Below are positions 1 to 20,396 of a DNA stretch of 64,000 nucleotides, in pieces (within the stretch, counting starts at the first letter, position 1; every line of letters starts with the position of its first letter). The notes beneath the pieces were generated by a model, which was given only the letters and a program-made list of their open reading frames with translations, searched no databases and had not been told where the DNA came from. The position numbers and the translations under genes were made by a program. Origin of the DNA: Bacteroidales bacterium. GTDB taxonomy: Bacteria; Bacteroidota; Bacteroidia; Bacteroidales; Muribaculaceae. The stretch is from NCBI GenBank assembly GCA_014800795.1, contig JAAVFL010000035.1, positions 6,869 through 70,868 on the forward strand, written 5' to 3'.

Positions 1-1
1 T

Positions 2-1111
2 AACAGTAAGTTAAAGGTATTTGCTGCTGATGATAGCAAGCTAGACGGATTTAACGCTAGCTTTGGATTGGTGGATGAATACCACTCTGCTAAGAACTCT
101 AAAGTAAGGGATGTAATTAAATCTTCTATGGGTATGAGGTAGAATCCGCATTTATGCACTATTACTACTGCTGGATTTGATAAAACATTACCCTGCTACA
201 AACTAAGAACTACAGCTATAGAAATACTGAATAAATTGAAGGAAGATGATAGTATGTTTATTGCTATCTACTCCTTAGATGATGAAGATGATTGGACTAA
301 AGAAGAGAACTGGGTAAAGTGTACTCCTAATCTGGATGTAACTGTTACCACAAAATATATCAAAGAATAGGTATAGAGTGCTATAAATAATCCTTCTGAG
401 GAAGTAGGTGTGAAAACCAAAACCCTTAATCTCTGGTGTGATTCCGCTTCCGTATGGCTTCCAGAATCCTACATAGATAGAAATAGCCAGAAGTTAAAGC
501 TGGAAGATTTTGAAGGATGCCCCTGCTATATCGGAGTAGATCTAGGTGCTACTTCTGACCTCACAGCGGTAACATATCTTATAGAGAAGGATGGTACTTA
601 TTACTTCAAGACAGATTACTATTTACCAGAATCAGCATTAAAAGAGAAGCCAGATAGAGAAACTTATAAGTATTGGAAGCAGATGGGATTACTAAAGGTT
701 ACTGAGGGTAATGTTACCGATTATGACTATATAACCAATGACTTAGTAAAGGCTAGTGAGATAGTGAATATTTAGGCTATCGGATATGATAAGTATAATG
801 CTACTCAGTGGGCGATTCATTCTACAGAGCTGGGATTACCTTTAGAGGAATATCCTTAGACGCTGGGAAATTTCAATAAGCCTACTAGAGAGCTGGAGCG
901 GTTAATACTATCTGGTAAAGCTGTAATAGATAACAATGAAATAAATAGATGGTGTTTTAAGAATGTTACCCTTAAATCAGACCATAACGGAAATGTGAAG
1001 CCTAACAAAGATGTGAAGGCTAAGAAGATTGATGGTGTGATAGCTATGATATAGGCTCTGGGTATGTATCTTCAAGTGCCACACTATTCAAACGAAATAA
1101 CAATAATTTAA
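2..1111 (+). CDS. terL: Terminase large subunit, C-terminal part (5' partial). Requires read-through of 6 in-frame TAGs.
   Basis: Frame-2 translation reads ...LVDEYHSAKNSKVRDVIKSSMGMR(TAG)NPHLCTITTAGFDK...KTLNLWCDS...IDGVIAMI(TAG)ALGMY..., typical of Terminase_1-type large subunits. In-frame TAGs start at 140, 368, 374, 773, 857 and 1052. The real stop is TAA at 1109-1111. Confidence 0.9.
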
Positions 1112-1124
1112 TAATAATCTACTT

Positions 1125-2375
1125 ATGTTCGGATTTGGTAAACGAAAAGAACAGCCTAAAGTAGAGGAAAGAAGTAGTATGTTTGGTTATCTTACTTATG
1201 GTAGTGCCAGTAGCTATACTACTGAAAAGGCTGTGTTACTTTCTACCGTCTATAGATGTGTAGAGGTAATATCTGATTCAATAGCCTAGCTTCCACTAGA
1301 GCCTTATAAAATGGATAGTCAAGGCTATAAAATCAAGTTTACTTCACACCCTACTTACAAGCTGCTAAACAAAGAGCCTAACCCTAGAATGACTAGATTT
1401 GACTTTATAAAGGTTCTGATAGTATCTACTCTTCTTAAAGGTAATGGCTATGCTTATATAGAAAGAGATGAAAGGGGAAATGCAAAAGGCTTACACTTCC
1501 TTCCGTCTGAGATTGTAACTATCATTAGACCTAAAACACTTAGCGAAGCAGTATCTTACAGTATTGCAGGACTGGGTAAGGTGGAAAGCTGCAATATGAT
1601 TCATATTAAGAATTTCAGCTATGACGGTATAGAGGGTGTATCTACTCTTAGACACGCTAGGAACTCTTTGGGATTAGCAGTAGATAGTGAAGCTCACGCT
1701 GCTGGATTCTTTAAGGGCGGTGCTAATCTGGCTGGTATTTTGAAATCTACCACTAACCTTAATTCACAACAGAAGGACTAGCTTAAAAGAAGCTGGCAAA
1801 TGGCTTTTAGTCCTGCTACTGGTACTCCTAATGGTGTTGCTGTATTAGAAGGAAATCTAACCTTTGAGCCTATTACAGTAAATCCTACTGATGCTCAACT
1901 ATTAGAAACTAGGCAATTTAATGTAGTGGATATATGCCGATTCTTTGGGGTATCTCCAGTAAAGGCTTTTGATTTGACTAAATCAAGCTATTCAACTGTA
2001 GAAGCTACTAACCTATCATTCCTTACTGAAACCTTATCACCACTCTTAGAGAAGATAGAGCTGGAATTTGAGAGGAAGCTGTATAAGCCTTCAGAGAAGG
2101 ATTCAATAGATGTAAGATTTGATACAGCTACATTACTGAGAGCCGATAAAGCAGCCTTAGCACAATACTATAACACGCTCTTTAATATCGGTGTGGTTAG
2201 TCCTAATGATATTAGAAAGCAGTTGGATTTACCAGCTATAGAAGGTGGCGATAATACCTTTGTATAGGTTAATATCCAGACCTTAGAAAGAGCTGTATCA
2301 TCTACTCCAGATGATACCAATACCATTAAAGAGAAAACGGATCTACAAACTGATATATTAACTGATAAAGAATAA
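1125..2375 (+). CDS. Portal protein (HK97/SPP1-like Phage_portal family). 3 in-frame TAGs.
   Basis: Joins ATG 1125 with ORF-track pieces 1311-1781 and 1800-2267, all in the same frame. Motifs: STVYRCVEVISDSIA(TAG)LPLEPY, GNGYAYIERD, LLETRQFNVVDICRFFGVSP. TAGs at 1287, 1779 and 2265. Stop is TAA at 2373-2375. Confidence 0.9.
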
Positions 2376-2380
2376 TTAAA

Positions 2381-4762
2381 ATGGAAATTAAAAAAGGCAG
2401 TGATTTAATCCTTATCCTTAGATTAGAGGATATTAAAGGCAGACCACTAAGAGTAAATGATACCGCTCACATTAAGGTATATGTTTGGACTGCAAACAAG
2501 AATAACTATCTGGTATTTAATAAAAGAGATATTCTTACAGATGGGAATGTAGATAGAATTGCCATCCCTAGCGACTTTATGAACACTCTGGAAACTGGTG
2601 TAGTATGCTATACTTATGATTACGCCGTGTGGGATTCTGCCTTCAAGCATACTGATTGTATGTATAATAAGGTTAAAGAGGTAGTTACTGATTTACTTTG
2701 GGAGAATTGTAATTTTAATGAAATCCCAGCTAACCCGATCAATTATCAGACACTTGAATATATTAAGGATCTGATTGAAGCTGAGAGATTAGAGAGGGTT
2801 AGAGATGTTAAGCACTTAGAGCATTTTGTAAAGTGTGAATATACCGATAAGCTAAATGAAGAGGTTAAGAGAAGCACACAAGTAGATATAGAAATGCTCA
2901 ACCGTATCAACTCCAATAAGGAACTTACTGATAATGCTGTTAAGGCTGTATCTGATAAGCTGGAAGCAGAGGTAAAGAGAAGTAATGAAGTTGATATAGA
3001 AATGTATAAGGTTATTAAGGAGAATAAAGATGGTGCTTCTGAGAAGATTGAGGAAGCCACTAATACCTTCTCTAATGCTCTTAATAACGAAATCTCCAGA
3101 GCTACCACAAAGGAGAATGAGCTAGCTACCAATCTTACTACAGAAATCAATAGAGTAACTGCTGAAATCAATACTACCAGAGATAGTATCGGTGCTGAGA
3201 AAGATAGAGCTAAGGATGCTGAGAAGTAGATTAAGGCTCTTCTGGATGCTGAAATTGATAGAGCTGTAGAAAAGGAAACTACCCTTAATGACAAGATTAA
3301 AGAGGAAGCAGCCAGAGCTAAAAATATGGAGAATGAGCTGCTACAGCATTTAGGGGATGAAATGGCACGTTCCTTAGAAAAGGATAGAGAGCATAAGCAG
3401 GAAATTGATATAGAAGTAAACCGTGCTAAAGCTGAGGAAAACAGAATAGATAACGCTCTTCAAGTAGAGGTATCTAGAAGTAAAGCTAAGGATGAAGAGC
3501 TTATTTCTACTATCCAATCAGAAGTAGAACGTGCTAAGACTGTAGAGAAGGATATTACCACTTCTCTTCAAAATCTGAAAGCTACTGTAACCAGTAAGAA
3601 TACTGAGGTAACTGAAGCCTTAGATGCAGAGGTAAACAGAGCAAAAGCAGCAGAGAAGGCTGTAGCTGATGATCTGGCTGCTGAGGTATCTAGAGCTAAG
3701 GCAGAAGAGAAGCTAATTAGTGATGCTCTTAAAGCAGAAGTTAAACGCTCAACTGATGAGGATGAAGCTATTAAGGCTTCTATTGCCGGTATAGCTTCCG
3801 ATGCTTCCGGAATTACTGAGAAGTTAAATGATGAGATTAGCCGGGCAAAAGCTAAAGAGAGTGAACTAAAGAGCAATATTGACGCTGTAAATACTTCACT
3901 TACTTCTCTTTCTGGAACTGTAGCCGATGAAATTACCAGAGCTAAATCATCTGAAAAAGAAATAGATGATAAGGTTAAAGCTGAAATCACCAGAGCCACA
4001 AATAAAGAAGCTGAATTAGCTGCCGCTATTGAAGCTGCTAATACCAATGTTACCAACACTCTTAAAGATTACGCCACTAAGGAAGAGGTAGATGGTAGGA
4101 TTAAGGATGTAATTGGTACTGCTCCAACTGCTTTAGATACACTCGGAGAGATCGCTGATAAACTTACTGATAATGATGATGCTGTAGCTGCAATAGTAAG
4201 CACTTTATCAGATAAGGCTAATAGCTCTGATGTATATACAAAATCTGAGGTAGATACAAAGGTAGCTACTATTCAATCCAACACAGCTACAGCTCTTACT
4301 GATGAAGTAAATAGAGCTAAGGCTAAGGAAGCCGAAATAGAATCAAGTGTAACAACAGAAGCAGCCAGAGCTACAGCAGCAGAGAATAAACTGGCTACTG
4401 ACCTTCAAACGGAAGCAGATAGAGCTAAGACTGCTGAAAGGGCAATTTCTGATAAGATTGACGTTATCAACGGTGATAATACTGTGATGGGTTCTATTGC
4501 TCACGCTGTAGAGGATGCCAAACACTATACCGATGATGAGATCAGTAAGCTAAATGTGGCTGTAAATAATAGTATCGCTGATGAAGCATCTAGAGCAGCC
4601 AGAGCTGAAAAGGATAATGCAGACGCTATTAAGGCTGAAGTTGAAAGAGCTAAATCTGCTGAATCCGATATTACGGATTCTATAGATGGTGTGAAGGATG
4701 ATGTAGCTGCTATCAGAGCAGGGTTTAGGGTAGAAAACGGAACTCTATATATAAATCTTTAA
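2381..4762 (+). CDS. Long coiled-coil fiber-like protein (about 793 aa) with roughly 20 copies of an E-[VI]-x-R-[AS]-K-x-x-E heptad-like motif. 1 in-frame TAG.
   Basis: Pieces 2381-3229 and 3326-4762 share a frame and are joined through the TAG at 3227. Repeats include EVNRAKAEENRI, EVSRAKAEEKLI and EITRAKSSEKEI. The GTAPTALDTLGEIADKL motif is common in phage tail-fiber proteins. The N-terminal 110 aa look like a beta-rich domain. Confidence 0.6.
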
Positions 4763-4768: not shown

Positions 4769-5605
4769 ATGGCAAATATAACTAAAATAAATCTGAAGGG
4801 TACTGAGTATATCCTAACCGATCTGGAAGCTCAGAGCCTTATAGCACAACTCAGAGAATCTACCTATAATAAAACAGAGGTAGATTCTTTGATGACAGCT
4901 ATTGATAATAAGATAGAAGGGATTGATTTAGCTTCTTATGAAACTATCAAAGGAGCAGAAGGCAAATACCAGCCTAAAGGAGATTACTTAACAGAGCATT
5001 AGGATATTAGTGGATTAGCTACTAAAGAGGATGTAGCGGAAGCTGTAGCTGGTATGGATGAGCAGTTTACTAACTATGTTACAAAGGATGAACTTCCTGC
5101 TGCTTATGATGATACTGAGCTTAAAGATAGAGTATCAGCACTTGAAGCTAATGGCGGTTCTGACTATGATGATACAGAGGTTAAGTCTAGATTAGATGAA
5201 CTTGAAGCTATCGATCATAGCCAGTACCTAACAGAAGATAGCACTGCTATTAAGGATATTGAAAACAGTATTGAAGGGAAAGCCGATACTGTTAATGTAT
5301 ATGCTAAAGAAGATACATACAACAAGACCCAGATAGATGAAATGGTATCGGCTGTAAACACTCAGTTAAATAGCAAACTTCCAATAGATAGCTTTAATGA
5401 ATGGAGTGAAACGGTAGCCACAAAAGAGGAAGTATCTGGTAAAGTAGATGTAGAAGATGGTAAAGGACTTTCTACAAATGATTACACAGATGCAGAAAAG
5501 GCTAAGTTAGCTGCTACCCCTACATTCTGGGTAGGTACACAAGCTGAATATGATGCTATATCTACTAAAGATAATAATACGTTCTACTATATAGCTGAAG
5601 AGTGA
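4769..5605 (+). CDS. Fiber-like protein carrying the shared N-terminal 'ITKINLxGxEY' module. 1 in-frame TAG.
   Basis: Pieces 4769-5002 and 5054-5605 share a frame and join through the TAG at 5000. N-terminus is MANITKINLKGTEYILTDLEAQ. The stop TGA overlaps the next ATG (ATGA at 5602). Confidence 0.5.
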
Positions 5606-6705
5606 TGAATGGAACTAGTAAGGGATTGGTAGGAGTGTTTGCTAATGGCACTCCTATCAGTACCATATATAACGGATTAAAAATAGTGTGGAGTAAGACA
5701 GCTTTAGCTCCAGTTAATCCTTATACTGGTTCTGTGGCTTTTGAGGTTGATACCCAGTTTGGAAATACTGTATATTTCCCTATTATTCCTTCTCACAGAT
5801 ACACTTCTAATACAGTATATGCTGAGGGCGTAATAGATTGGGGTGATGGCAAAACTACAAATTATTCTAAATCAACCAATCAAACAGCAGCAGCCAGAAG
5901 GATCAGCCACACTTATAACACAGATGGAAGATATACAGTAGTGTTTACTCCTTCTACAAAACACTATGAGATTAGTGATGGTGATTGGACTAAAAATTAT
6001 ATCAATCCGATTACTAAATTTCTGAGCTATGGAGATTAGGAAACTGCTATGTTTTATATGTACTATCCAAACTATATATCTTACTTAGCTCCTAATGGCT
6101 CTTTTGATGATAGACTATATATTAACTATAGCAGATATGAAGGTACTATGAATCTGGATAGTGTATTTAGTGTAGGAGAAAAGGCAGGATGTATTAGCTA
6201 TAGTAAAATGAGTAGAATAGAAGGTGATATGTTCAGGGGAAATACTAAATTAAAGAATGTTGGAAGTATTTTGATTTATAACGATAATCTAAAATATATT
6301 GAAACTCTTAATATTGCCACTGCTACCAGTGCATCTAACATTATCGGGCAATCCCCAGTAATGATAATTGAAACTGTTGCAATGCCTACAGCTTTGGATA
6401 ATATGGCTAAGATTTTGGATAGTGGATATTATAATGACAGCTCTATGATTGGAGAACTGAGATAGATGGAAATAACCAATATCAGTAGCAATAAAAATTC
6501 CTATCTTTATTTTGATGGATTAACTAACTGGGGAGTAAATTCAGATGAAGCTCCTAACGCCAGACAGAGCCTAGTTAAAAGCCTTCTAACTAATACTACA
6601 GAGAAAACTAGTGCTGTTAAAATCTATCTATCTGCCAACACAAAAGCACTCTTAACAGATGAGGAAATAGCACAAATAACTTCTAAAGGATATACTATAT
6701 TATGA
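5602..6705 (+). CDS. Hypothetical structural protein, possibly the distal or receptor-binding partner of the fiber. 2 in-frame TAGs.
   Basis: Three ORF-track pieces (5602-6039, 6049-6465, 6466-6705) share one frame. TAGs at 6037 and 6463. The stop TGA overlaps the ATG at 6702. Confidence 0.45.
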
Positions 6706-6932
6706 AACAAACTACATACACTACTAGGGTTCTGATTCCAGAACTGGGAAACTATATTACACAAGCTGAAGATGTTGATATTATACACAGAGTATTCTCT
6801 GAGAAGGTATTTCTAGCGGTTAATGATTCCCCTTCTAATTGGAAAGAAATTACAGCAGATGAAGCAGAGATTTTAATGGCTGCTCAGAAGGCAGCTCTGG
6901 AAGAGGAAGCTAATAAGGATGAAGCTAACTAA
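6702..6932 (+). CDS. Small acidic hypothetical protein (76 aa), with no in-frame TAG.
   Basis: Intact ORF translationally coupled (ATGA) to the upstream gene. I recognise no motif. Confidence 0.4.
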   Translation: MKQTTYTTRVLIPELGNYITQAEDVDIIHRVFSEKVFLAVNDSPSNWKEITADEAEILMAAQKAALEEEANKDEAN

Positions 6933-7092
6933 AGCAATTATAGACGGTAAGGAATACGATGTTACCGATAAACAAGCTCAACAACTATTAGACGTGCTAT
7001 CTGGTAAAATGGATAGCTTGGAAGAGAGTATGAGTAAGATGAGAGAACAGATGAAGGAATTTGTAGAATCATTTGAATGGCTGGAGCTATGA
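6919..7092 (+). CDS. Short paralog of the 'ITKINL' N-terminal module (57 aa).
   Basis: Hand translation: MKLTKAIIDGKEYDVTDKQAQQLLDVLSGKMDSLEESMSKMREQMKEFVESFEWLEL. Below the ORF-track size cutoff. The stop TGA overlaps the next ATG. Confidence 0.4.
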   Translation: MKLTKAIIDGKEYDVTDKQAQQLLDVLSGKMDSLEESMSKMREQMKEFVESFEWLEL

Positions 7093-7241
7093 AAATCACT
7101 AAAATAAATATTGACGGAAAAGAATATATCATTAAAGATAAAGAAGCTCAGATAGCAGTAGAAGAGCTGAGATCTAAACTTGAAGCTGTGGAGCAGGAAT
7201 TAAAATCAGTGTCAAAACTACATATAATTGAAGTAGAGTAA
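7089..7241 (+). CDS. Short paralog of the 'ITKINL' N-terminal module (50 aa).
   Basis: Hand translation: MKITKINIDGKEYIIKDKEAQIAVEELRSKLEAVEQELKSVSKLHIIEVE. TAATG overlap with the next gene. Confidence 0.4.
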   Translation: MKITKINIDGKEYIIKDKEAQIAVEELRSKLEAVEQELKSVSKLHIIEVE

Positions 7242-7762
7242 TGGATAATATCACTAAAATCAATCTTAACGGTAAAGAATATATAATTACCGATAATGAA
7301 GCTCAATTAGTTATTTAGGAGCTTCTTAACCGTATTGCTGAACTTGAAGATAAGACAGCAGAAGCTAAAGAAGTATCTGAGTTTACTAAGGGAAGTATCT
7401 TTGCTGGAGTAATGGATGAAACCGATAAGGATAACCCTATTACTTATGAACTCTTAGCTTCTCAGTTAATAAAGGATTCAGTGAATAATAAAGTATTTGC
7501 TAATACTGATAAACCAATTACAGTAAGATATGACTGGCTATCCGCTAAGAAAGAACTACCATTAAAAACCTTCCTTCTCTTAGTTCCTGCCACACATAAG
7601 AATCTTTATAGCCTATCTTCTCCTAGCCAGAACTTTGTAGGATGGGATGATGAATATACAGTAGTAACTATCAACTTCCCTACTGGATCTATGCAGTATA
7701 AAGTTTTCAGATTTGCTAACTGGCTGGTAAGATGCCAGAATGAAATTACCTATAAATTCTGA
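7241..7762 (+). CDS. 'ITKINL'-module protein with a distinct C-terminal domain (173 aa). 1 in-frame TAG.
   Basis: MDNITKINLNGKEYIITDNEAQLVI(TAG)ELLNRIAELEDK... runs in frame into ORF-track piece 7412-7762. TAG at 7316. Confidence 0.5.
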
Positions 7763-7767
7763 TAGCA

Positions 7768-8106
7768 ATGGAGATTACTAAGATCAATATAAACGGAGTG
7801 GAGTATGAGCTGGTAGATAAGTCTTCTAGAGAAACAATAGATAAGATCAATGAGCCATATATACCATATCCTAGAATACAGAAGGATGTGATAGAAGCTC
7901 AGAATATCAGTGATACTATCTTTGATGGCTTTAATGTAATGCCCTATACCTACTTCTACTTCACTTCCACTAATAAGGATAGAGTGCTTTATACTAAGCT
8001 GGGTAATACTTTTCATTAGAATTAGGTTTACCCAGTTAGCCACTTATCCAATAATGTAGATGAACTTGAAGAGGGAGAAGTTATTACTATCTACTATGGG
8101 AATTGA
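7768..8106 (+). CDS. 'ITKINL'-module protein (112 aa). 2 in-frame TAGs.
   Basis: MEITKININGVEYELVDKSS... extends past TAGs at 8017 and 8023 to a TGA at 8104-8106. Confidence 0.45.
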
Positions 8107-8299: not shown

Positions 8300-8875
8300 A
8301 TGGTAAGAGAAGTAAGAAACACTAATAACGAAATTACACCGATTTTACCAGAATCCAGATTAGTGAGTGGCTATGCTATTGTATTTAATTCGGATTCTAA
8401 TGATTTAGGTGGATTTACTGAGCGGATTAATCCCGATGCCTTAAATGGAGTTGTAGAGAAGTCGGATGTACTTTGTTTGCTTAACCATAATGAGGATAGA
8501 GGTGTATTAGCCAGAAGTAATAAGGGTGAAGGTAGCTTAACCTTAGAGATAGATGAAATTGGATTAAAATACTCTTTTGAAGCTCCTAATACTGCTCTGG
8601 GTGATGAGCTGTTAGAAGGACTTAGAAGAGGTGATATTTCTACTTCCAGTTTTGCCTTCACAGTTGAAAAAGATAGCTGGAGTAAGAATGAAGATGGCAG
8701 CTATCTTAGAACTATCAATAGTATCAGTGAGCTATTTGATGTATCGCCAGTGTATAGAGCTGCTTATGATGCCACTTCTGTAAAGGTGGATGCTAGAGGA
8801 CTGGATGAAATGAAGACAAAGGAGCAGGAAGAGCTAGCCAATTATTTTAATGAACTTAGAGCTAAATTAAAATGA
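8300..8875 (+). CDS. Prohead (capsid maturation) protease, HK97 family (S78/U35).
   Basis: SGYAIVFNSDSNDLGGFTERINPDAL...LLNHNEDRGVLAR...STSSFAFTV matches the HK97 prohead protease pattern. It sits immediately upstream of the MCP with an ATGA overlap. No in-frame TAG. Confidence 0.9.
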   Translation: MVREVRNTNNEITPILPESRLVSGYAIVFNSDSNDLGGFTERINPDALNGVVEKSDVLCLLNHNEDRGVLARSNKGEGSLTLEIDEIGLKYSFEAPNTALGDELLEGLRRGDISTSSFAFTVEKDSWSKNEDGSYLRTINSISELFDVSPVYRAAYDATSVKVDARGLDEMKTKEQEELANYFNELRAKLK

Positions 8876-10035
8876 ATAGTATTGAACTGATAGACAAAAA
8901 GGAACAGCTACAGATTAGAGCTAACGCTATTCTATCTGGTGCTGAAAAAGAATCTAGGAAGCTCAATGATGAGGAAACAGCTAGCTTCAATGAGATTCTT
9001 AAAGAGATAGAGCAAACAGATGAGGAACTTAGAAAGATGGATAACACTATAAATATTGACAATAACAATAAACAAATTAGAAAAATGGAAAAATTTTCTT
9101 TACTTAAAGCTATTAAGGCTGTAACTGAAAAGCAGCCACTTGATGAAAGAAGTGCAGCTATTGTAAATGAGGGTATCGCTGAAATGCGTAAGACTGGACT
9201 TTCTTTTAACGGACAGATTCAGCTTCCAGTAGAAGAGCGTGCTGATGTGCAAGCTACTGTAGCTACTGCTGGTATGGAAGCTGTGGCAACAGATAAACTT
9301 AATATTTTAGAGCCACTTCGCGCTAACTTGGTAATGGCTTAGGCTGGTGCTACCTTTATGACTGGACTTGTAGGAAATGTAGCTATCCCTATGTACGATG
9401 GAACTACTGTAGGTTGGGAAGGTGAAATAGACCCTGCTAAGGATGGTGCTGGTAAATTCTCTGAAATTGAACTTTCTCCTAAACGTCTTACTGCTTTTAT
9501 TGACGTATCTAAGCAGTTCCTACTTCAAGATTCTGTAAGTGCTGAAGCTATGCTTAGAAATGATATTGTAAAGGCTCTTTCTAACAAACTTGAAGCTACT
9601 ATTTTGGGTGATGCTGCTGGTACTAATAAAGTTCCTGCTGGTATCTTTAATGGTGCTGATGCTGTTACAACTCCAGATTATCTAACTACTGTTAGTATGG
9701 AGGAAACACTAGAGGAAGCTAATGTATATGGTGATTACTGCTATATCGTATCTCCTAAAGCTAAGGCACTTCTTCGCATTGCTAAGAAGGGTGATAATGG
9801 CTTTGTAATGGAGAATGGAGAAGTAAATGGTATTAAGGTACTTTGTACTTCTGCTGCTAAGGGTATGGTACTTGGTAATTTCTCTGAATATGTAATTGCT
9901 CAGTGGGGAGCTATTGATCTTACTATTGACCCTTATTCACAAGCTGTAAATGGCAAAGTAAGAATTATCATTAACGCTTACTTTGATGCTAAACCTAGAC
10001 GCTCTGAGGCTTTTGTAGCTGGAGTAGTTGAGTAA
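8872..10035 (+). CDS. Major capsid protein, HK97 fold, with an N-terminal coiled-coil delta domain. 1 in-frame TAG.
   Basis: Pieces 8872-9342 and 9358-10035 share a frame, joined through the TAG at 9340 (…RANLVMA(TAG)AGATFMTGLVGNVAIPMYDG…W.GE…). Position after the protease and a length of about 387 aa fit. Stop is TAA. Confidence 0.9.
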
Positions 10036-10416: not shown

Positions 10417-10418
10417 AT

Positions 10419-10739
10419 ATGAGAGCTGGACTATTATCGGAAGTTATCTCAGTTGAAAAGCCAGTTACTATTACTGATGAGTTTGGAGCTAATTATACTA
10501 AATGGGAAACCTTCATAAGAAAGACAAAAGCACAAGTTACCTATACAAGCGGTAATAGGCTTAATGAGAATAATGAAATAATCTTTGCTTATGAAGTGGT
10601 ATTTACAGTGAGAATTTATCACCAGATAGATGAAAGAATGAGGATTATCTGGAAGAATAAAAAGTATCGTATATTATCCCTAGAAGAGAATAAACACCTT
10701 CAGACTTTAACAATTAAAGCGGAGCTAATCAATGAATAA
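10419..10739 (+). CDS. Head closure / head-tail joining protein (Phage_H_T_join-like).
   Basis: 106 aa in the canonical position. The pattern ...ITDEFGANYTKWE...AQV...IFAYEVVFTVR...RIIWKNKKYRILS is typical of this family. No TAG. Confidence 0.7.
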   Translation: MRAGLLSEVISVEKPVTITDEFGANYTKWETFIRKTKAQVTYTSGNRLNENNEIIFAYEVVFTVRIYHQIDERMRIIWKNKKYRILSLEENKHLQTLTIKAELINE

Positions 10740-11163
10740 CGTAAGTATTGATGATACTTCAGTACAAAATCTTTTTAATGCTTTAGACGCTGATTCTACT
10801 AAGTAGATCCTATTCACTGCTCTAAAGAAAGGTGGATAGAAGCTCACTAGCCAGACTAAGAGAAGTTTGAGAGCTAAATTAGGTGCTGGTGCTACTACTC
10901 CTAACAGATGGAACGGTAAGACGATGGAAAGCGGTGTAAGGCTTAAAGCTGATAAGGATTACTGTGAAGTATCTGTGAGTATATTAGGAGATTTTAGGCT
11001 GAAATTCTTTGAGAAGGGAACAGCACAAAGAAGGCTTAGAAGAGGTGGAGCTAACAGAGGTAGCATTAAACCCCTCAACTTCTTTAGAGAAGCTAGATAG
11101 CAGGATATAGATGAAACTATAAACAGTTCTATTACAGAATCATTAAGGCGTATTGAACGATGA
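10732..11163 (+). CDS. HK97 gp10-like tail-component protein. 3 in-frame TAGs.
   Basis: ATG 10732 is in frame with ORF-track piece 10867-11100. TAGs at 10804, 10837 and 11098. The TGA stop at 11161-11163 overlaps the next ATG (11160). Confidence 0.6.
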
Positions 11164-11525
11164 ACGGATTAGAAATAGGTAAAGCCATATATAAAGTGCT
11201 GGAAGGCACTACAAAAGTATATCCCTTAGTAGCTGATTAGGGTGCTGCTTTTCCCTTTATAGTCTATCGGAGAAGCGGACTATCACACGCTAACACTAAA
11301 GATAGATTCAGCTATTAGGAGCTGGCTACAGTAGAAGTAATTGTAGCTGCTGGTTCATATACTGAATCACTCCAGATCGCTAAACAAGTATTAGGCAGAA
11401 TGGAATATACTAGAGGGATGTACGAAAATATCAGCATATCAGAGATTAAGCTGGTAAATGCTGAGGAAGATTATATAGAAGATGCTTTTATACAAAAACT
11501 AACTTTTAATATTGAAATACTATGA
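11160..11525 (+). CDS. Tail completion / tail terminator protein (DUF3168-like). 2 in-frame TAGs.
   Basis: Hand translation: MNGLEIGKAIYKVLEGTTKVYPLVAD(TAG)GAAFPFIVYRRSG... TAGs at 11238 and 11316. The stop TGA overlaps the ATG at 11522. No piece of this gene reaches the ORF-track size cutoff because of the TAGs. Confidence 0.55.
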
Positions 11526-12010
11526 TTACAAAAGGTGGTGATCTTATGCTTTTCGTTAATGGAAAAGCTATCGCATACGCAACTAACCACACTCTTAGTA
11601 TCTCTGCTGATACTAAGGAAACTTCTACTAAAGATAGTGGTGGACTTTGGCAGACTTCAGAAGTAGGTATGTTAAGCTGGAGCTGCTCTAGTGAGAATCT
11701 TGTAGGTGATCCGATGGCAGGAATAGGATATGCAGAGCTTTATGATATGATGATAGCTCGCAAGCCTGTAACTGGTGTATTTGCACTTGAAGGTAACTCT
11801 ACTAACTTTGCAGAGGGTAAACTGGGTGCTGCTCCTACTGCTGGCTGGACTCCTAAAGCTGGTGATGGTTATACTGGATAGATGGTTATAACCAGCCTTG
11901 AAAAGAACGCCCCTAACGGTGAAAATGTAACTATTAAGGTTGATTTTACTGGTGTGGGTGAGCTTAAAAAGGTATCTGGAGCTAAAACCTTCTCACTGAC
12001 TGAGGGATAA
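11522..12010 (+). CDS. Major tail (tube) protein, TP901-1/phi13-like. 1 in-frame TAG.
   Basis: LFVNGKAIAYATNHTLSISADTKETSTKDSGGLWQTSEVGMLSWSCSSENL is typical of siphovirus tube proteins. It extends through the TAG at 11879 to a TAA at 12008-12010. Confidence 0.7.
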
Positions 12011-12185: not shown

Positions 12186-12485
12186 ATGACAATTACAATT
12201 AACAATATAGAGTATAAGCTGAAATATACTATCAGAGCTATATTTATCTTTGAGTAGATAGCTAAGAAGCCTTTTGAAGTAACTACTACCTTAGATAACT
12301 ACCTATTCTTTTACTGTATGATTCTGGCTAATAATCCAGATACGGCATTAGATTGGGATGATTTTTTAGATGCTGTAGATAATGATAAATCTCTTCTATT
12401 ACAGCTCAATGAGGTAATTATGAATTACCAGCAAAAGAATGAGCTGTTTAATGATGGTGGGGATAGCGGTGAAAAAAAAAGTTAA
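12186..12485 (+). CDS. Tail assembly chaperone (gpG-like). 1 in-frame TAG.
   Basis: 99 aa, immediately upstream of the tape measure. Ends ...GGDSGEKKS at TAA 12483-12485, just after an A9 slippery run. TAG at 12255. Confidence 0.75.
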
Positions 12486-12799
12486 GTGTATCTGAGTTAT
12501 ACGCTATACTTACACTTAGGCTACATTTTCCCCCAGAGTATGTACTGGATAAGATGGAGCTATACGAAGTAAAGGCTATTATGGATTATGAGTATTTAGC
12601 TTATAAAGATAGCTGGGAGCAATCCAGATTAGTAGCCTATATGATAGCCTAGACTAACAGCACAAAGTAGTTAAAGCTAACTGATATTCTTAAATTCCAC
12701 TGGGAGAAAGAAGATACAGATACTTCTATTTCTAATGCTGAGGTGGATAGATTAAGACAGAAGGCTAAACAATTTGAAAACATATTAAATACAAAATAA
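12186..12799 (+). CDS. Tail assembly chaperone frameshift product (gpGT-like), made by a -1 slip in the A-run at 12472-12480. 2 more in-frame TAGs in the extension.
   Basis: The -1 frame is open from the A-run to a TAA at 12797-12799 (…KKKLSVSELYAILTLRLHFPPEYVLDKMELYEVKAIMDYEYLAYKDSWEQSR…) and ends 1 nt before the tape measure ATG at 12801. Confidence 0.65.
12471..12481 (+). promoter_or_regulatory. Programmed -1 ribosomal frameshift slippery site (G AAA AAA AAA G).
   Basis: A run of nine A residues lies 1-2 codons before the gpG-like stop, with a long open -1 frame downstream. This arrangement is conserved in tailed phages. Confidence 0.7.
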
Positions 12800-12800: not shown

Positions 12801-15635
12801 ATGGCAAACGATTATATAGTTAGGCTATAGGGTTAGGATAATCTATCTGGTACTATCCGAAATGTGCAAAGGAGTATAGAAGGACTGGGTGGAAGTGCTA
12901 ACCGATTAGACGCAATAGAGCAGAAATTTAATCGCATAGACCAATCTTCAGCACCACTTAGAAAGAAGCTGAAGGATGTGAAGGGAGAAATGGAAAAGCT
13001 AGCTGTAGCTGGTGATACTTCCAGTGAACTCTTCTAGAGAATGGCACAAGCAGCACAGAGGTATCAGCAAGCTCTAGACTAGCTAAACCAATCTACTAGA
13101 GGTGTTACTAATTCCAGTAACTAGATGAATAGTAGGCTGGGTGATCTTAGAGGTATCGCAAATGATATAGCTTCTAGAAGTGGATTCGGTGGTATTGCAG
13201 GGCAGTTAGGAGCATTAGTTACCCCTGCTGGAGCTGCTACTGCTGCTGTGGCTGCTGTTGGTGTGGTGATGGTACAAGCTGGTAAATCGGCTGCTGAATT
13301 TGAAACACACTTAGACAGTTTGCAATCTCTAACGGGATTGAGTGATGAAGCTATGAAAGATATATCTAAGGGAGCTGTAGATATGAGTAAGGAGTTTAAG
13401 AGTAGTGCCAGTGATATAGTAGATGCTATGAAGCTGATTGGTTCGCAAGCTCCAGAACTCCTATCTGATAAAGATGCTCTGATGGAAGTTACTAAGGCTG
13501 CAAACGTATTAGCGGAAGCAGCTTAGATAGAAGTAGTGGATGCAGCTAAGGGTATCACTACTGTAATGAATCAAATGGGTGTATCTGCTTCAGAAGCATC
13601 CAATATTATCAATACTCTGGCAGCATCTTCTTAGCAGGGTTCTGCTGATGTAGCCTATCTTAATAAGGCTTTTGAAAAGGCTGGTACTGCTGCTAAAGGT
13701 GCTGGTATGAACTATGTGGAACTATCGGCTGCTGTAGAAGCTATAGCACCTAAATTTAGTTCTGCTGATGTGGCTGGCTCACAACTTGCATCGACACTAT
13801 TAAAGCTATCTATGCAGGGTAATAATGATTTTAAGCCTGCTATGGTAGGTATGCAATAGGCTTTAGAAAATCTGGCTGCTGCTGAAATGACAGATAGCCA
13901 GATTAAGGATTTAGTAGGTGAATCTAATGTAACTATGCTGAAATCCCTTATAGAAGCTAAAGATACCTTTGCAGGGTACACCCAGAGCCTAGCAGGAACT
14001 AACACAGCCTTTGAACAGATGGCTATAAATAATGATAACTTTGAGGGTGCTGTTACTAAGCTAAAATCTGCTTGGGATGCTCTTCTAATCACTCTAGGAC
14101 AGTCTGGAGTATTGCAGGGTATAGCAGATGGAATAATGGATATTATGGGATTACTGAATGATATTATAAATGTAATCTCTGATGTTATAAGCACCTTTGA
14201 TTTATTTGGAACTGATGTAACGGATAACTGTAATATCTCTAAAATGCAGATAAGCCTTTTATCCGATATTATAAAGGGTATTGGTACTGTTTTACAGATT
14301 GTAGTAGCTGTAGCAGCTAAAGCCTTCAATGCTATTAAGGATGCTGCTACCAATGTAGCTAACGGTATTATGAATAAATGGAATCAGCTTAAAGGTACTT
14401 TGACTGATAACGCCTTTGTTTAGAATATTGCTAATGCTTGGACTACAATTTATAATAAGGCTGTAGAGATAATTGGTAAGGTTAAAAAGCTCTGGAATGA
14501 GTTTTTACAATGGCTGGGATTAGAAAGTAAATCTGCTTCTGTTCCTGCTCCAATGAAAACTACAGCGGTAACTAATACCAATACTACCACTTCTACAGAA
14601 CTTCCTACTAATACTTCTACTGGAACTGGTAAAGGCTCTGGTAAAGGAAGTGGTAAAAGCGGTACTAAATCTACAACCACTAAGCCAACTCAAACACCCC
14701 CAGAAGTAGGAAGTTTAGCAGCTCTGGAATAGGCTTATAGAAAGCTGGATGATGAGCTTAAAAACACAGTAGTATCTGATGAACGGTTAGCCGAAATTAA
14801 AGCGGAAAAATCAGCTTTAGAAGAGCAGATAAAGCAGCTCAAAATCAGAAACGGATTACTTGTAGAAAAGAAGGAAGAGCCTAAAGAGGTGAAACCACAA
14901 GCTAAAGAAGGCTCTTTAGCCTATGTGCAAAAGCAAATATCTGATAAATCGGCTGCTCTTAAATTGGAAGTAGTAGGTTCTGATGAATGGAAGCAGCTTA
15001 GTAAGGAGATAGCTGATTTAACAGACCAGCAGCACACTATTCAGATTTAGGTAAATGGTGAAGCTGTAAAAAGCCAGTTTGAATTAGCTGCTGAAGCTGC
15101 TGAAGCCTATAAGGAAAAGATGGCTGCTACTTAGGATGTAGTAGGTAATGTAGGTAGTGCTTTTAGCTCTTTAGGTGGTGCTATCGGTGGAACTGCTGGA
15201 AAGATGCTGGAAATGGCTGGATAGACAGCTTAGGCGGTAGCTCAGATGATTCCCCAGATTGTAGCTCTTATAGGTGCTAAGGAAGGTGAGGCTTTAGCTG
15301 CTGGTACTGCTTCTGCTGCTTCCCTGCCATTCCCTGCTAACATAGCTGCTATAGCTTCCATTATAGCTACTATTACAGCTCTATTCGCTTCCTTTGCTGG
15401 TAGCTTTGCCGATGGTGGTATTATCAGTGGTGGCTCTTTTCACGGTGATAAGATGCTAGCCAGAGTAAACGCTGGAGAAATGATATTAAATCCTAAGCAG
15501 CAGAGTAATCTGTTTAATGCTCTGGATAGTGGCGGTGCTACTGGTGGTGTGCAGAATGTAGAGTTTAAGATTAGGGGAGCTGAATTAGTGGGATGTACTA
15601 AGAACTATAATAGTAAGATGTCTAAGCTGAAATAA
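12801..15635 (+). CDS. Tail tape measure protein (about 944 aa, TP901-type core). About 14 in-frame TAGs.
   Basis: ATG 12801 and ORF-track pieces 13125-13526, 13887-14423 and 15246-15635 are all in one frame. The core reads ...AAKGITTVMNQMGVSASEASNIINTLAASS(TAG)QGSADVAYLNKAFEKAGTAAKGAGMNYVELSAAVEAIAPKF... There is a hydrophobic Gly/Ala segment near the C-terminus. Stop is TAA. Confidence 0.9.
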
Positions 15636-15641
15636 CTATAA

Positions 15642-15697: not shown

Positions 15698-18133
15698 ATG
15701 TCTAAATATACTAGTGAGTTTACTTCAATAGAGAATATAAATTACAGAGTTGATATAGTTACTGATAAAGGTAGCACTACTGAGAACTTTGTATTAGGCG
15801 GTACACCCTTCATTACTCAGATGGATAGCGATGGTAAAACTATTTACGCTCCTATTAAATCAAGTGGAGCTACTATAGAAATGCTTACTTCTAAAATGCC
15901 TTTTGATTTATATAGTGGCAATACTAAGGGAGTTAAGGTAACACTTACTAATACTACTGCTAATAGAGTTGAATGGGTTGGATATGTTACACCGTGCGCT
16001 TATGATATGGGATTAGATGAAGAGAAGGAAGTAGTGGAGATTGAATGTGTAGATGGTATAGCAGCATTAAAAGATATGCCATACCGTTCTGCTAATAAAG
16101 ATGTAGATACCTTCTTAAATGTAGTTTTCAAATGCCTTAAAAGAGCTGGCTGTTATAAGAATCTGTATGTAACAGATAACGTACAATTCACTTCTAGCGG
16201 TACTGATTCCATAATGTCTAAGCTAAGAATATCAGAAGCTAACTTTTATGAAGAGAAGGATAGTGAAGCCTAGCCAGATGATTCTGTAGCTTGGAACTGT
16301 TACGATGTACTCTTTGAGATTATGTAGTATATGGGTTATACTCTTACTGCTGATGGAGAAGATGTATATATACTGGATTATGATGCTATGGTTAAGGGTA
16401 GAACTAAATACTTCAAATACTCTCTTACTGGCTCTTCTATCGGTACTCCTTCCACTGTAACCCTATCTTCCACTCAGCTTATAGACGGTAATTCACACGC
16501 TGAGAACGGAGCTAAGATTACTTTGGATGAGGTATTTAATCAAGTTACTGTAATAGATGAGTTTTATGAGATTGATAGCCTAGTAGATGGACTGGATAGC
16601 AGTAAGAACTACATTAACATTACAGCCAGTTATGATAATGAGCTGAAAAACTGGTTTAAGAATGATAGTAGGTTTTTAGAATCAGAAGTATTTACTGTAA
16701 AGAATAAAGCTGGAGTAGATGAGAGCTTTTTTGTTACTCTTACTAAGGCTGATGATGGTAAAATATTCTTTGTAGTAGGTAAGTTCTATGAGAATCCTAT
16801 GATTACCACTTATCACTATAGCCATAATGATAATAGAGTTTAGGCTTCTAATCTGTATGATCCTATGAAGTATTCAAGTATCTGGAATGGTAAGGGTGCT
16901 TAGGTGGTTGGGTACTTTACTAAGCAGATAGAGAGTAATAAGTACAATATCTGGAGAGCTAATATTACTTCTAATTGGGATGGATAGAGCAAAGATGTAA
17001 AGTTACAGCAGTTCGGATAGCTGGCTAATATAGCTAATATCGGAAGTAAGAAGCTGGTGAACTATATCCTTTGCCTTAATCAAGACACTAACCACATAGA
17101 ACACGATAAAGTTAGAAATTACCCCTTCTTTAAGATTAAGAAATCAGTACCTACTATCTTTGGTGGTGATGGTGGTTATATAGTGATTAAAGGAACTGTT
17201 ATTAGGCACTATATGTATAATGCTCCTTTTCCTATGAATGGTACTGTTTATAGGCATAAGGACACTAAGAAAACTTCTATCTATGCTAATGAAGGCTATA
17301 TATGGGCGCAATTAAAATGGGGTAATCACTACTGGAAAAATGAAGGTGATTATAAGTCTATGGGAGATTGGGTAACTACTCCAGCCTACTTTAAGATTTA
17401 CTATGGCGACCCTACAGCGGAACACCGTGTAGATGACTGGCAGGATAAGGATTCACCATTCTATAATAACTGTGGCTCTTTATGGGGTGTGGATGAGAAT
17501 GGCTATTATGTGCCAACTCCGCCAGATGGAAACCTTAACGGAGAAGTGGAGCTGACTATATTTGCCAATAAAGATACTAAAGGTAAATGGGCTAGAAATA
17601 ATAAGAAGGATAAAAAGAATAGCTATAGTGGCTATCCGCCTAAAGTTATGCTGTTTAAGGGATTGGATATTACTGTAGGATATTCTGATGATGCTATGAA
17701 TGAAGATGCTGCTTCTGCTGATACTTACTATTGTGCTGATAACTCTACTCAGGATAATGTAAGACAGATGGAAGAGCTGAAGTTTAAGATTTGTACTTAT
17801 GACAATAAAACCCCCAGCTATTCTACTGTAGATTATCTGGATAATGCAGGAAAGAGCCAGTACCTAGATAATACCTATAATCTGGCTACAAAACAGTATC
17901 TAAGGCAGGAACACCATTTAGTATATAAGCTGGTTAATCAGTACACAGAACCTAGAGCAATTCTAGAATTTAATCTAAAGAGATAGCTTAATATTAAACC
18001 TTACACTATTTTAACCAATAAGACTATTAGCGGAAGGAAGTACATAGTGCAGACTATAGGCAATGATTACCGATTTGGTATCTCTTAGGTTGAAATAATT
18101 GAAAAAGCGGATAATTACGATGCGATTGATTAA
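15698..18133 (+). CDS. Large distal-tail / baseplate protein (about 811 aa; Dit/Tal-like by position). About 8 in-frame TAGs.
   Basis: Pieces 15698-16273, 16331-16843 and 17057-17986 share one frame. The gaps contain only TAG (for example 16271, 16325, 16841, 17984). Stop is TAA at 18131-18133. It sits directly after the tape measure. Confidence 0.6.
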
Positions 18134-19220
18134 ATACGATGGAATAAGCGATAAGAGCGTTAAAGCCATATTAGGCAATAGTGGCGGTGGCTCTTCTAAT
18201 AGCTCTGATGTTGGCTCTAGAAGTGAATATACAGAGCTTAACAGAACTATCTGGGGTTAGGATGATACTGGGGATGATATAGATGGAAGTATGACTGTAA
18301 ACGGCAATATTTCTATTAAGTGTATCATACCCCCTTCCTATGAAGATGATGATTCTGATGATGGAGAAGATGAGGTATCAGAAGAAGGTGGTGGTAATCT
18401 CGATGTAGAGCTAAAGATTACTTCTAAGGATGTAGAAGCTAATAATATATATGCTACTGAGCATTTATATATACCACACCCTTCTACTAAGGCTAAGACA
18501 GATATAGTAGAGCTTCTTAAAGGCTATGATAGCAGGATTACCAATAACACAACTAACATAGCTTCCAATAAGACGGAAATAGACGCTCTTAAAGATAGAG
18601 TAGATACTGCTGAAACTAATATAACCAATCTGACTACTACAGTTAATAATCACACTACCAATATTAAGAAAAATGCAGATGATATAGCCGATTTACAGGA
18701 TAAGGTGGCTAATGGTGTGAGTGAGGATTATATTAAGCAGCTTATAGAATAGCTGGCTATCTCCAGAAATGGCAGCTACAGTAATCCTATTATTCTTATA
18801 TCTGGTAGATTCAGACGCTCTAGCATATCTGGAAGTAATTTCTACTTCTTTGATGGATAGAGTAACAATAATATGTATGTTAATACTGCTACTGCTGAAA
18901 ATGGACTTTTAACTATAAAGCTCACTTCTTACAATAATGCTAAGATTTATATTTCCAGCGTGGTAGTTACTTAGTATAAGTCTGGAGATACTACTGATGA
19001 GATTACCAATCCATATATTAAGGGTAGAAGTGATGGAGCGCACTGGTTTGAAGCCAGATGTGATAGCCACTCAGATACTAAAGAGATTTATATTAGGGAA
19101 TTTCACTAGGGAAACGGTGATAATGATACTTGGTATTCTGATAACTGGTTTGGTGATGGTGGAATTAGGCAGATAAATGTAATTGCTACTGGCTATATAA
19201 TAATTCCAAACAATGAATAA
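18120..19220 (+). CDS. Tail fiber / receptor-binding protein with a central coiled coil (about 366 aa). About 5 in-frame TAGs.
   Basis: ATG 18120 is in frame with piece 18291-18752. Contains an acidic stretch (YEDDDSDDGEDEVSEE) and N/T-rich heptads (TNNTTNIASNKTEIDALKDRVDTAETNITNLTTTVNNH). It extends through TAGs to a TAA at 19218-19220. Confidence 0.6.
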
Positions 19221-19935
19221 TATTATTAAAAGTGTACTGGGAGCTATATCTAATGGCTTAACTAAGCTGATTGGAGCAGTTAAGAGATACGGTATTATCT
19301 CTTCAGTTGTGGCTATGGCTTTATTTGTTGGCTCTTATACTCTAGTAATCAATCCTATCAGAGTGGATTAGATTGTAGAGAAGAGAATAGAGTATGTAAT
19401 GGAAAAAGAGAATAATAAAGCTGTAGAAGTTAGAGAGATTAGTATAGAGAAGAGATATAAGGCTGATGAGATTGTAGGTGATATTATGGTTAAGCTGATT
19501 GATAAATACGAGAATATTCAGAGGGTATTACTTCTGGAGAAGCACAATAGCCTTCAATCTATTAGCGGTGTAGATTTTCTATATCTTAGCTGCTCTATGG
19601 AAATGCTAACGCCTAACTCTACTCACTTAAATTATCTCAGTGAGGATTTACAGAAGCAGATAGTAGTGAATCTGATGGGTAATGATATGATAAACACTCT
19701 AAAGCATAGGGATTACCTATATTACCCAGATGTAGCTAGCTGCAAGCATCCTCAGCATAGGCTTATACACAAGCTGAGGGATGCAGGGGATAAGGAATGT
19801 GTGATTATTCCTTTTAAGGATGCTAATCATAGACCGCTCTTATTATTTGTGATTACTGGGTAGAATCTGGATGTAGATGGTATCACTGAATATATCCAGC
19901 AATTCAGTAAGACTATAGAGGATTGTCTGCTATGA
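19213..19935 (+). CDS. Membrane-anchored protein (one N-terminal TM helix), possibly a holin or lysis-associated protein. 2 in-frame TAGs.
   Basis: MNNIIKSVLGAISNGLTKLIGAVKRYGIISSVVAMALFVGSYTLVI... is followed by piece 19399-19863 in the same frame. TAGs at 19369 and 19861. The stop TGA overlaps the ATG at 19932. Confidence 0.5.
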
Positions 19936-20396
19936 AGCTGAGATTATATAGGAAGTATAAGAAAGCTACCTACAGTATAGGAAAGCTCTATGTAGATGGG
20001 GTGTACTTCTGTGATACTGTAGAGGATAAGGATAGAGGATTAACCGATAAGGATTTTCTGGAGAAGATTAAGGCTACTAAGGTATATGCTAAAACTGCTA
20101 TTCCTACTGGTACTTATAAGATTACTATGGGTGTAATCAGTCCTAAGTTTAGCCAGAAGCCTTACTATAAAGCCTTCTGTAATGGTAAGCTACCCAGAAT
20201 ACTTAATGTGAAGGGATTTGATGGCATACTAATACATAAAGGCTCTAATGCTGATAGCTCTGCTGGCTGTATCATAGTAGGTAAGAATACAGTAGTAGGT
20301 GGAGTAACTAATAGTTAGTTCTACTTTGAGAAGCTGTATAAGCTATTAGATGAAGCCTATAAGAAGGGTGAAACCATTGAGCTAGAGATACAGTAA
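19932..20396 (+). CDS. DUF5675-like / YkuD-like putative cell-wall enzyme (endolysin candidate). 1 in-frame TAG.
   Basis: The ILIHKGSNADSSAGCIIVG motif resembles the H-x-G...S-x-G-C active-site pattern of L,D-transpeptidase-fold proteins. It extends through the TAG at 20316 to a TAA at 20394-20396. Position is the end of the late operon. Confidence 0.5.

Follow-up and report, generated by a model that had tools for sequence, protein, structure and literature searches.

The window analyzed here, a stretch of 64,000 nucleotides from contig JAAVFL010000035.1, opens with a block of phage genes (positions 1-20396) in which the stop codon TAG is recoded to glutamine (Gln; genetic code 15), and continues into the chromosome of a standard-code host. 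Taking the evidence together, we hold it to be very probable that these genes are part of a live temperate prophage of ~35 kb that uses two codes, that its lytic functions would be locked in the lysogen, and that the activity decoding TAG would be supplied in trans or belong to a type not yet recognised.

We listed stop-to-stop open reading frames (ORFs) for the whole window under four genetic codes. When TAG was read as a sense codon, the plus strand of 1-20396 was filled by a continuous array of long ORFs. The fraction of this region covered by plus-strand ORFs of at least 60 amino acids (aa) was 68% under code 11, 70% under code 4 and 96% under code 15. The 24 phage genes of the region, all on the plus strand, comprise 6599 codons and contain 56 in-frame TAGs and no in-frame TAA or TGA; at least one TAG is present in 18 of the 24. 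Read in either of the other two frames, these genes contain all three stop codons in abundance, so only the coding frame shows the exclusive use of TAG. The base following TAG did not differ from the background at codon position 1 (p = 0.21).

The original prediction, made from the letters of the sequence alone, had read these genes in the same way, and every TAG coordinate that it listed was reproduced exactly. TAGs were found at the positions it gave in the terminase (140, 368, 374, 773, 857 and 1052), the portal (1287, 1779 and 2265), the major capsid protein (MCP; 9340) and the tail tube protein (11879), and its counts for the tape measure (14), an 811-aa protein (8) and a fibre (5) were correct. 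The ATGA stop-start overlaps that it listed at 6702, 11160, 11522 and 19932 are present. As it had claimed, the joined genes end only in TAA (15 genes) or TGA (9 genes), and apart from the expected chaperone slip, at a run of nine A residues (A9), no frameshift and no in-frame TAA or TGA interrupts the 6599 codons. Its total of ~57 in-frame TAGs was slightly too high: we counted 56, and the 57th, at 21356, is better read as the stop codon of a gene at 20456-21358. Re-prediction under other translation tables, one of the checks it had proposed, gave the increase in coverage from 68% to 96% under code 15. A second, alignment of the rebuilt genes to PHROG profiles, gave full-length matches through the TAGs, which the profiles span in single stretches (residues 1-358 of the terminase, 7-406 of the portal, 9-384 of the capsid and 13-759 of the tape measure). 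Further PHROG matches were to a protease, an adaptor, a head closure protein, a tail terminator and a major tail protein.

We compared codons at the DNA level to determine the meaning of TAG. For this, the genes of the window were placed in codon alignments with ORFs of ~55 related loci (L001, L067 and similar labels denote related loci or contigs in this analysis). At the TAG sites of the window, the relatives had TAG 276 times, CAG 190, CAA 110, AAA 44, GAA 33 and AAG 26, the CAG and CAA codons being counted among ~590 non-TAG codons. At two sites in the terminase (aa123 and aa286) and two in the portal (aa55 and aa381), only TAG, CAG or CAA was found in relatives, and in contigs that share at least 96% identity with the window CAG was the sole replacement. 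Because conserved sites have only TAG, CAG and CAA, and close contigs only the change from TAG to CAG, this comparison identifies TAG as a glutamine codon in the phage lytic genes and upholds the TAG-to-Gln assignment first proposed from the window. By this reading, the glutamine codons of the 24 late genes are 62 CAA, 94 CAG and 56 TAG (26% TAG). A protein alignment to 120 terminase homologues, mostly with Q in five of the six TAG columns, was dropped as circular. The DNA of these homologues is itself TAG-recoded and the protein database stores Q at TAG for code-15 contigs, so protein alignments against it are useless for inferring the meaning of TAG.

Extent of the prophage and its two codes

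The whole element is ~35 kb, of which the window holds the right-hand ~22.6 kb. The left arm was rebuilt from contigs 95.5-100% identical to the window in their overlaps, recovered via TAG-free or database proteins. Contig L072, from the same sample as a twin contig of the window, matches the window at 99.75% identity over 1216 bp and extends it by 6.9 kb upstream; L067, L068, L069 and L070 supply the remaining left arm, up to a large serine recombinase (PF07508/PF00239). In L076 and L067 the recombinase is flanked on its left by GC-rich sequence that is not phage. The order of the left arm is recombinase, two lipoprotein genes, an 81-aa gene, small minus-strand genes, a gene for a 590-606-aa protein with a DEYH motif, one tRNA, an HNH gene, terS, one or more methyltransferase genes, an HNH/NUMOD-like gene and terL, after which the window takes over. 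The DEYH protein, for which no family match was found, looks helicase-like when its sequence is read.

The right end of the prophage was placed by contigs L021 and L022, which are 99.6-99.8% identical to the window until ~22586-22593 and then continue into a different flank. The end at 20396 in the original prediction was therefore too short, and two standard-code genes, g25 and g26, belong to the element. The GC content is 33-43% per kb (37% overall) up to ~21000, ~43% from 21000 to 23000, and ~51% beyond. Values of 36-41% on the left of the right junction and 51% in the host genes agree with its placement. The features of the right end and of the adjoining host chromosome are as follows.

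20456-21358, plus strand: g25, standard-code accessory gene of 300 aa that ends in TAG (codon 301)
21507-22397, plus strand: g26, standard-code accessory gene of 296 aa with no TAG; terminator-like site at 22421-22454
22586-22593, no strand: approximate right junction of the prophage, from the divergence of L021 and L022
23316-23390, minus strand: host tRNA-Arg(UCU), not the attachment point
23438-24373, minus strand: first host gene, dihydrodipicolinate synthase (dapA); PF00701 in the database, 100% identical in L013
51233-51304, plus strand: host tRNA-Gln(CUG), closest host relative of the CUA suppressors of sister phages (see below)
57861-59591, plus strand: host glycosyltransferase-like gene that ends in TAG, a stop codon in this host

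Beyond the shared junction, L021 and L022 have sequence that is weakly similar to the window yet different, which suggests that hosts differ in the target site or in what surrounds it. L021 and L022 were also considered as contigs spanning a circular junction (attP). No match was found between their extension and the left flanks of L067 or L068, and the extension probably represents a different integration context. The ~720 bp between the prophage end and the tRNA-Arg (22594-23315) have no ORF and a GC content of 43%. The tRNA-Arg was rejected as the attachment site because phage sequence stops ~720 bp before it, and the ORF at 23438-24373, considered as an integrase, is host dapA.

The host side of the window had no in-frame TAG in 27 ORFs (12030 codons), and the host stops were TGA (15), TAA (11) and TAG (1, at 59589-59591). 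The lack of in-frame TAG in host genes and the one TAG stop had been noted in the earlier reading of this DNA. The difference in in-frame TAG between phage and host genes is highly significant (Fisher p = 5e-26). The host genes include a T9SS sorting domain and a TamL lipoprotein, families that we take to point to Bacteroidota; the host is a standard-code member of this phylum. Because TAG is the stop codon of just one of 27 host genes, amber suppression would be cheap for the host.

The genes at the two ends of the element (the recombinase, the two lipoprotein genes, the 81-aa gene, g25 and g26) have 55 CAA or CAG codons and no sense TAG, a result with P = 5e-8 at the TAG share of the late genes. 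The recombinase of L068 has a single TAG, at codon 614 of 615. In g25, which has nine glutamine codons and no sense TAG, a terminator hairpin (21357-21407; dG -18.5 kcal/mol, z -4.2, followed by U6) starts right at the TAG, and homologues are mostly 287-300 aa long. Judging from these sequences, TAG is a stop codon in the end genes (the L068 recombinase and g25). The middle module has 21 TAG, 16 CAA and 16 CAG codons for glutamine (~40% TAG), so even putative early lytic genes would need TAG decoding.

These observations add up to the following picture, in which the integration and the split between modules are shown by the sequences and the lock is deduced from them. A large serine recombinase integrated the ~35-kb phage into a standard-code Bacteroidota chromosome. 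Genes for replication, regulation, packaging, virion and lysis use TAG for glutamine, and the end genes never use TAG as a sense codon. In the lysogen, host release factor 1 (RF1) would truncate the products of 18 of the 24 late genes in the window and most products of the middle module, and we infer, following the model of Borges et al. (bioRxiv 10.1101/2021.08.26.457843), that this truncation acts as a translational lock on lytic functions. Lytic growth would then need an activity that decodes TAG as glutamine. Since putative early genes carry TAG, a simple timing switch from early standard-code genes to late recoded genes would not apply here.

The decoder of TAG

We searched the element for a gene that might decode TAG. 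The only tRNAs in the window are the two host tRNAs, tRNA-Arg(UCU) and tRNA-Gln(CUG), and none has a CUA anticodon. In the reconstructed left arm we found neither a CUA tRNA nor a gene for a release factor or an aminoacyl-tRNA synthetase; its one tRNA is tRNA-Ala(GGC). ARAGORN found no CUA tRNA in the element when run on the window and the left-arm contigs, and Rfam in E-value mode found no suppressor tRNA in window 1-23500, L067, L068 or L072. A custom scan for CUA anticodon loops found none in the element and recovered the control in L001. A covariance model of the suppressors of sister phages, run with filters off, detected only the tRNA-Ala and the host tRNA-Arg, everything else scoring at most 11 bits. 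There was no release factor or aminoacyl-tRNA synthetase among the left-arm and right-end proteins compared with PHROG, Pfam, PADLOC, NCBIfam and the PDB. The earlier statement that the window has no CUA-anticodon tRNA or release-factor gene agrees with these searches.

The sister phages L001/L002, L005, L033, L035, L038 and L061 have terminases 76-90% identical to that of the window, the same gene order, and TAG at 0.2-0.8% of aligned codons. Each has a tRNA(CUA) in the interval from the helicase-like gene to terS. These suppressors resemble the host tRNA-Gln(CUG), the likeness lying in U1 (A1 in L038), C3, C4, a D-arm of approximately GTGTAAxGGTAGCAC and, in most, A73; this likeness also supports the reading of TAG as glutamine. 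A tRNA-Ala occupies the same slot in the lineage of the window and its nearest relatives (L003, L004, L023, L025-L027, L029, L030, L067-L072 and L074-L076). Representative copies are listed here.

L068 8042-8114, minus strand: slot tRNA-Ala
L072 2051-2123, minus strand: slot tRNA-Ala
L003 3913-3985, minus strand: slot tRNA-Ala
L076 8448-8520, minus strand: slot tRNA-Ala

The slot tRNA-Ala has G3:U70 and A73, and its anticodon is GGC in most copies; those of L023, L025, L026 and L076 have the loop TCAGCAT (C33) and the anticodon AGC. The anticodon stems vary by compensatory changes. GCT makes up 71% of alanine codons in the phage versus 20% in the host, so the tRNA-Ala can be explained as support for codon usage. 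We rejected the possibility that the tRNA-Ala (GGC or AGC) is a disguised suppressor, given G3:U70 and A73, the retention of GGC across compensatory stem changes, the 71% share of GCT, and the lack of enrichment of alanine codons at TAG sites. As far as these sequences go, the lineage of the window demonstrably lacks the suppressor that its sisters carry.

With no suppressor, release factor or synthetase detectable in the element, TAG decoding would have to be provided in trans or by something not yet recognised. It might come from a co-resident or co-infecting recoded phage or from the host, or the host tRNA-Gln(CUG) might read UAG as a near-cognate codon once RF1 is neutralised. The original prediction had placed the decoding machinery either in the part of the prophage outside the window or in something unconventional. 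The first is now very unlikely, the left arm having only the tRNA-Ala; the second still stands.

The chances are slightly below even, in our estimate, that this widespread lineage has truly lost, or never had, a TAG decoder of its own and depends on supply in trans for its lytic cycle, even though nearly all of its genes outside the lysogeny modules require TAG to be read as glutamine. If so, a suppressor from a co-resident or co-infecting recoded phage would amount to a helper- or kin-sensing dependence; alternatively, the host would enter a state that disables RF1 and lets its tRNA-Gln(CUG) read UAG. Decoding in recoded phages that have no suppressor would then be directly testable with the sisters, which have terminases 76-90% identical and differ only in what the tRNA slot contains, and with the related recoded prophage of a cultured Segatella copri isolate.

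The strongest alternative is that the lineage does encode a suppressor that was missed, either because the tRNA is very aberrant or because it lies within the ~6 kb seen only via relatives. Borges et al. suggest undetected non-canonical tRNAs for the suppressor-less 60% of TAG-recoded genomes, and the odd-loop tRNA-Ala of L076, found by ARAGORN, was itself missed by the filtered Rfam search. However, four independent left-arm contigs (L067-L070) and L072, from the sample of the twin contig, each have a single tRNA, tRNA-Ala(GGC), the unfiltered covariance search found nothing else above 11 bits, and the syntenic slot of the suppressor is occupied by tRNA-Ala. We consider a missed suppressor rather unlikely.

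Several points weigh against the overall reading of a locked prophage with an external or unrecognised decoder. The lock is a model carried over to this element, and putative early genes also carry TAG. The recoding is known here from DNA, and insertion of glutamine is predicted. The leftmost ~6 kb of the window's own copy is reconstructed from L067-L070, which are 95-99% identical to the window in the overlaps. Finally, a suppressor might lie elsewhere in the host genome or take the form of a highly aberrant tRNA.

Alternatives to a fixed glutamine codon in functional genes

TAG might not be a fixed glutamine codon at all, and might instead specify another residue or act as a leaky stop that tunes protein dosage by partial read-through. 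Consistent with this, relatives have Lys, Glu or Ala codons at some poorly conserved TAG sites, no dedicated TAG decoder was found in the lineage of the window, and the tRNA(CUA) of relative L034 has a long variable arm and is possibly not charged with glutamine. Against it, where relatives have a codon other than TAG at these sites, it is a glutamine codon in about half of the cases overall and in every case at invariant sites, and TAG to CAG is the sole change among close variants. The 14 TAGs of the single tape-measure gene could not be passed by a low-level leak, and no context bias is seen at the base that follows TAG (p = 0.21). We regard this alternative as improbable, and keep to TAG as a glutamine codon.

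The tRNA of L034 (5945-6033, minus strand) is an 89-nt type II tRNA(CUA) with A73. Charging with Leu, Tyr or Ser is possible, in which case the meaning of TAG would differ in the L034 phage.

The phage genes are under purifying selection and are functional rather than decayed. Over the joined frames, dN/dS was 0.118 against L014, 0.113 against L067 and 0.122 against L016, and the substitutions relative to L014 fall mostly at third codon positions (223, compared with 65 at first and 32 at second positions). The TAGs are identical in 13 other contigs from at least nine sample accessions. One contig of 159,911 bp (ena:ERZ27267547:k119_137135) matches positions 1202-32397 of the window at 99.99-100%, with the phage-host junction included. 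Because the same TAGs recur in 13 contigs and CAG is the sole alternative codon, the TAGs are not assembly errors. The original prediction had named decay and assembly artefact among the outcomes that would tell against recoding; neither was found, with dN/dS of ~0.12 and TAGs that recur.

A decayed cryptic prophage, with genes broken by accumulated nonsense mutations, would account for the fragmentation of every long gene under code 11 and for the failure to find a suppressor tRNA in the lineage. This explanation has next to no probability: all 56 interruptions are TAG, with no TAA, TGA or frameshift, dN/dS is ~0.12 across and past the TAGs, TAG positions are common to relatives, where they swap with CAG and CAA, and there are many 97-100% identical copies in independent samples, with the right end joined to differing flanks. 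An assembly artefact, either consensus-error TAGs or a phage contig misjoined to a host contig, is just as implausible despite the 15-point GC step at the junction, given identical TAGs in 13 contigs from several assemblers and samples, a junction that is identical over 20.9 kb in ena:ERZ27267547:k119_137135, relatives inside Bacteroidales contigs of 139-331 kb (including a cultured Segatella copri isolate), and GC-rich non-phage flanks left of the recombinase in L067 and L076.

Gene content, relatives and known recoded phages

The order of genes, TerS-TerL-portal-protease-HK97 MCP-connector-tube-chaperone slip-tape measure, together with the integrase, identifies the element from its gene content as a temperate siphovirus of the HK97 type (Caudoviricetes). 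Megablast of 1-20400 against GenBank phages gave no match. The phage genes of the window up to 20396 are as follows.

2-1111, plus strand: large terminase, C-terminal 369 aa, 5' end outside the window; phrog_9 (E=6e-107), 6 sense TAGs
1125-2375, plus strand: portal protein, 416 aa; phrog_12 (E=8e-106), 3 sense TAGs
2381-4762, plus strand: 793-aa repetitive, coiled-coil, fibre-like protein; phrog_13589 and phrog_23820 (tail fibre), 1 TAG
4769-8106, plus strand: variable cassette g04-g10, encoding 278, 366, 76, 57, 54, 173 and 112 aa; 6 sense TAGs in total
8300-8875, plus strand: head maturation protease (S78); phrog_80 (E=4e-41), no TAG
8872-10035, plus strand: HK97-type major capsid protein, 387 aa; phrog_617 (E=3e-46), TAG at 9340
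10114-11525, plus strand: connectors, namely Ad1, Hc1, a 143-aa protein (3 TAGs) and the tail terminator (2 TAGs); phrog_40, phrog_25 and phrog_347
11522-12010, plus strand: major tail (tube) protein; phrog_1407 (E=8e-24), TAG at 11879
12186-12799, plus strand: tail assembly chaperone pair, -1 slip on the A9 run at 12470-12480; 3 TAGs
12801-15635, plus strand: tape measure protein, 944 aa; phrog_28 (E=9e-41), 14 sense TAGs
15698-19220, plus strand: 811-aa distal tail or baseplate protein (8 TAGs) and 366-aa fibre- or adhesin-like protein (5 TAGs)
19213-20396, plus strand: probable lysis genes, a 240-aa protein (2 TAGs) and a 154-aa DUF5675 protein (1 TAG)

The cassette at 4769-8106, between portal and protease, is the most variable region among relatives. 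Five of its genes (starts at 4769, 6919, 7077, 7241 and 7768) share the N-terminal motif I/LTKINxxGxEYxxxD, after which the sequences diverge, and the database records PF24243 (Phage_tail_C) for the 278-aa product. From its sequence it looks like a cassette of proteins with one shared anchoring N-terminus, perhaps head or neck fibres. In the profile search, the 811-aa protein had no family match and the 366-aa protein had a weak match to phrog_17426. The last two genes probably serve lysis, judging from their position; matches for the pair were PF18925 (E=1e-24) and phrog_1501, and the 240-aa protein appears on reading to have a hydrophobic N-terminal stretch. The AlphaFold model of g25 is confident (pLDDT 87, pTM 0.84), and it had no Foldseek match in the PDB or BFVD and no family match; its invariant residues lie in the stretch PRRSNCCMVSxxEQ. 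No match for g26 was found in Pfam, PHROG, PADLOC, NCBIfam or the PDB.

The relatives fall on both sides of the code change. Those with a terminase at least 72% identical to that of the window are nearly all TAG-recoded (0.2-2% of aligned codons), and those at 65-70% identity have no in-frame TAG and are, by their sequences, standard-code cousins (L008, L009, L011, L040, L045, L050-L052, L054-L056 and L058-L060). The cousins are useful for dating the change of code. Some of them are on contigs labelled Muribaculaceae or Oscillospiraceae. The contig L012 (JAZSQW010000003.1) is recoded, with a terminase 78% identical and 13 TAGs in 2400 codons; it is binned as Candidatus Avigastranaerophilus, an unexpected host label that is possibly a binning error. 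A related prophage is present in Segatella copri genomes (L010, NZ_VZBE01000055.1, 84493-106109, and L007), one of them from a cultured isolate (iAP1412). It has the highest TAG density seen (~2% of codons, with nine in terL), and in iAP1412 there is no tRNA within 10 kb of terL. This prophage is a possible experimental system.

The element is a clean, well-bounded prophage in which lytic genes that the host cannot read stand beside standard-code host genes. Because gene callers using code 11 shred it, it is also a useful test case for annotation. The work of Borges et al. has reportedly since appeared in Nature Microbiology.

TAG-recoded prophages of this kind have been described. Eight clades of recoded gut phages are presented by Borges et al., including the TAG-recoded Garnet prophages of Prevotella, which are 34 +/- 5 kb long, have in-frame TAG in 71% of their genes and a GC step at their boundaries, and whose integrases are free of in-frame stops except in terminal extensions (bioRxiv 10.1101/2021.08.26.457843). 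The same source detects suppressor tRNAs in only 40% of the genomes recoding TAG and proposes recoding as a lysis-lysogeny lock. TAG-to-Gln translation has been shown by metaproteomics in crAss-like gut phages (Peters et al. 2022, PMC9523058).

The present element fits the Garnet picture feature by feature, the likeness being by size, host phylum and share of TAG-bearing genes. Both are small temperate phages (34 +/- 5 kb there, ~35 kb here) of standard-code Bacteroidota hosts that use TAG as glutamine, with TAG in 71% of genes there and in 18 of 24 here. In both, structural and lysis genes form one recoded block, GC skew is one-directional, GC content steps at the boundary, and the integrase has no sense TAG, an in-frame stop being confined to a terminal extension. 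For the lysogeny module, the lock model agrees with the end genes of the present element, where 55 glutamine codons include no sense TAG. Unlike the curated Garnet example given there (24 kb, bounded by a host tRNA-Met), the element ends ~720 bp short of a tRNA-Arg, and its suppressor slot is shown to hold a tRNA-Ala. Its integrase is a large serine recombinase.

Code-15 crAss-like and Lak phages, reportedly the subject of Ivanova 2014, Yutin 2021 and Devoto 2019, likewise use TAG as glutamine in Bacteroidota hosts, with the recoding concentrated in late genes. They are large lytic phages (~100-550 kb) that usually have suppressor tRNAs and sometimes RF2, whereas the present element is a 35-kb temperate siphovirus in which neither was detected.

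The closest comparison is with the sister phages, which have the same gene order and recoding but carry a tRNA-Gln-like tRNA(CUA) where the lineage of the window has tRNA-Ala (GGC or AGC). TAG-recoded Prevotella prophages with TAG-free integrases and TAG-to-Gln recoding are already published; the new point is a suppressor-less lineage whose slot holds tRNA-Ala. The clade spans standard-code relatives, recoded relatives with a suppressor, and recoded relatives with tRNA-Ala and no detectable decoder. About 60% of published TAG-recoded phage genomes are without a detectable suppressor, and the matched sister pairs, together with the related prophage of a culturable S. copri strain, offer a practical route to how suppressor-less phages switch code.

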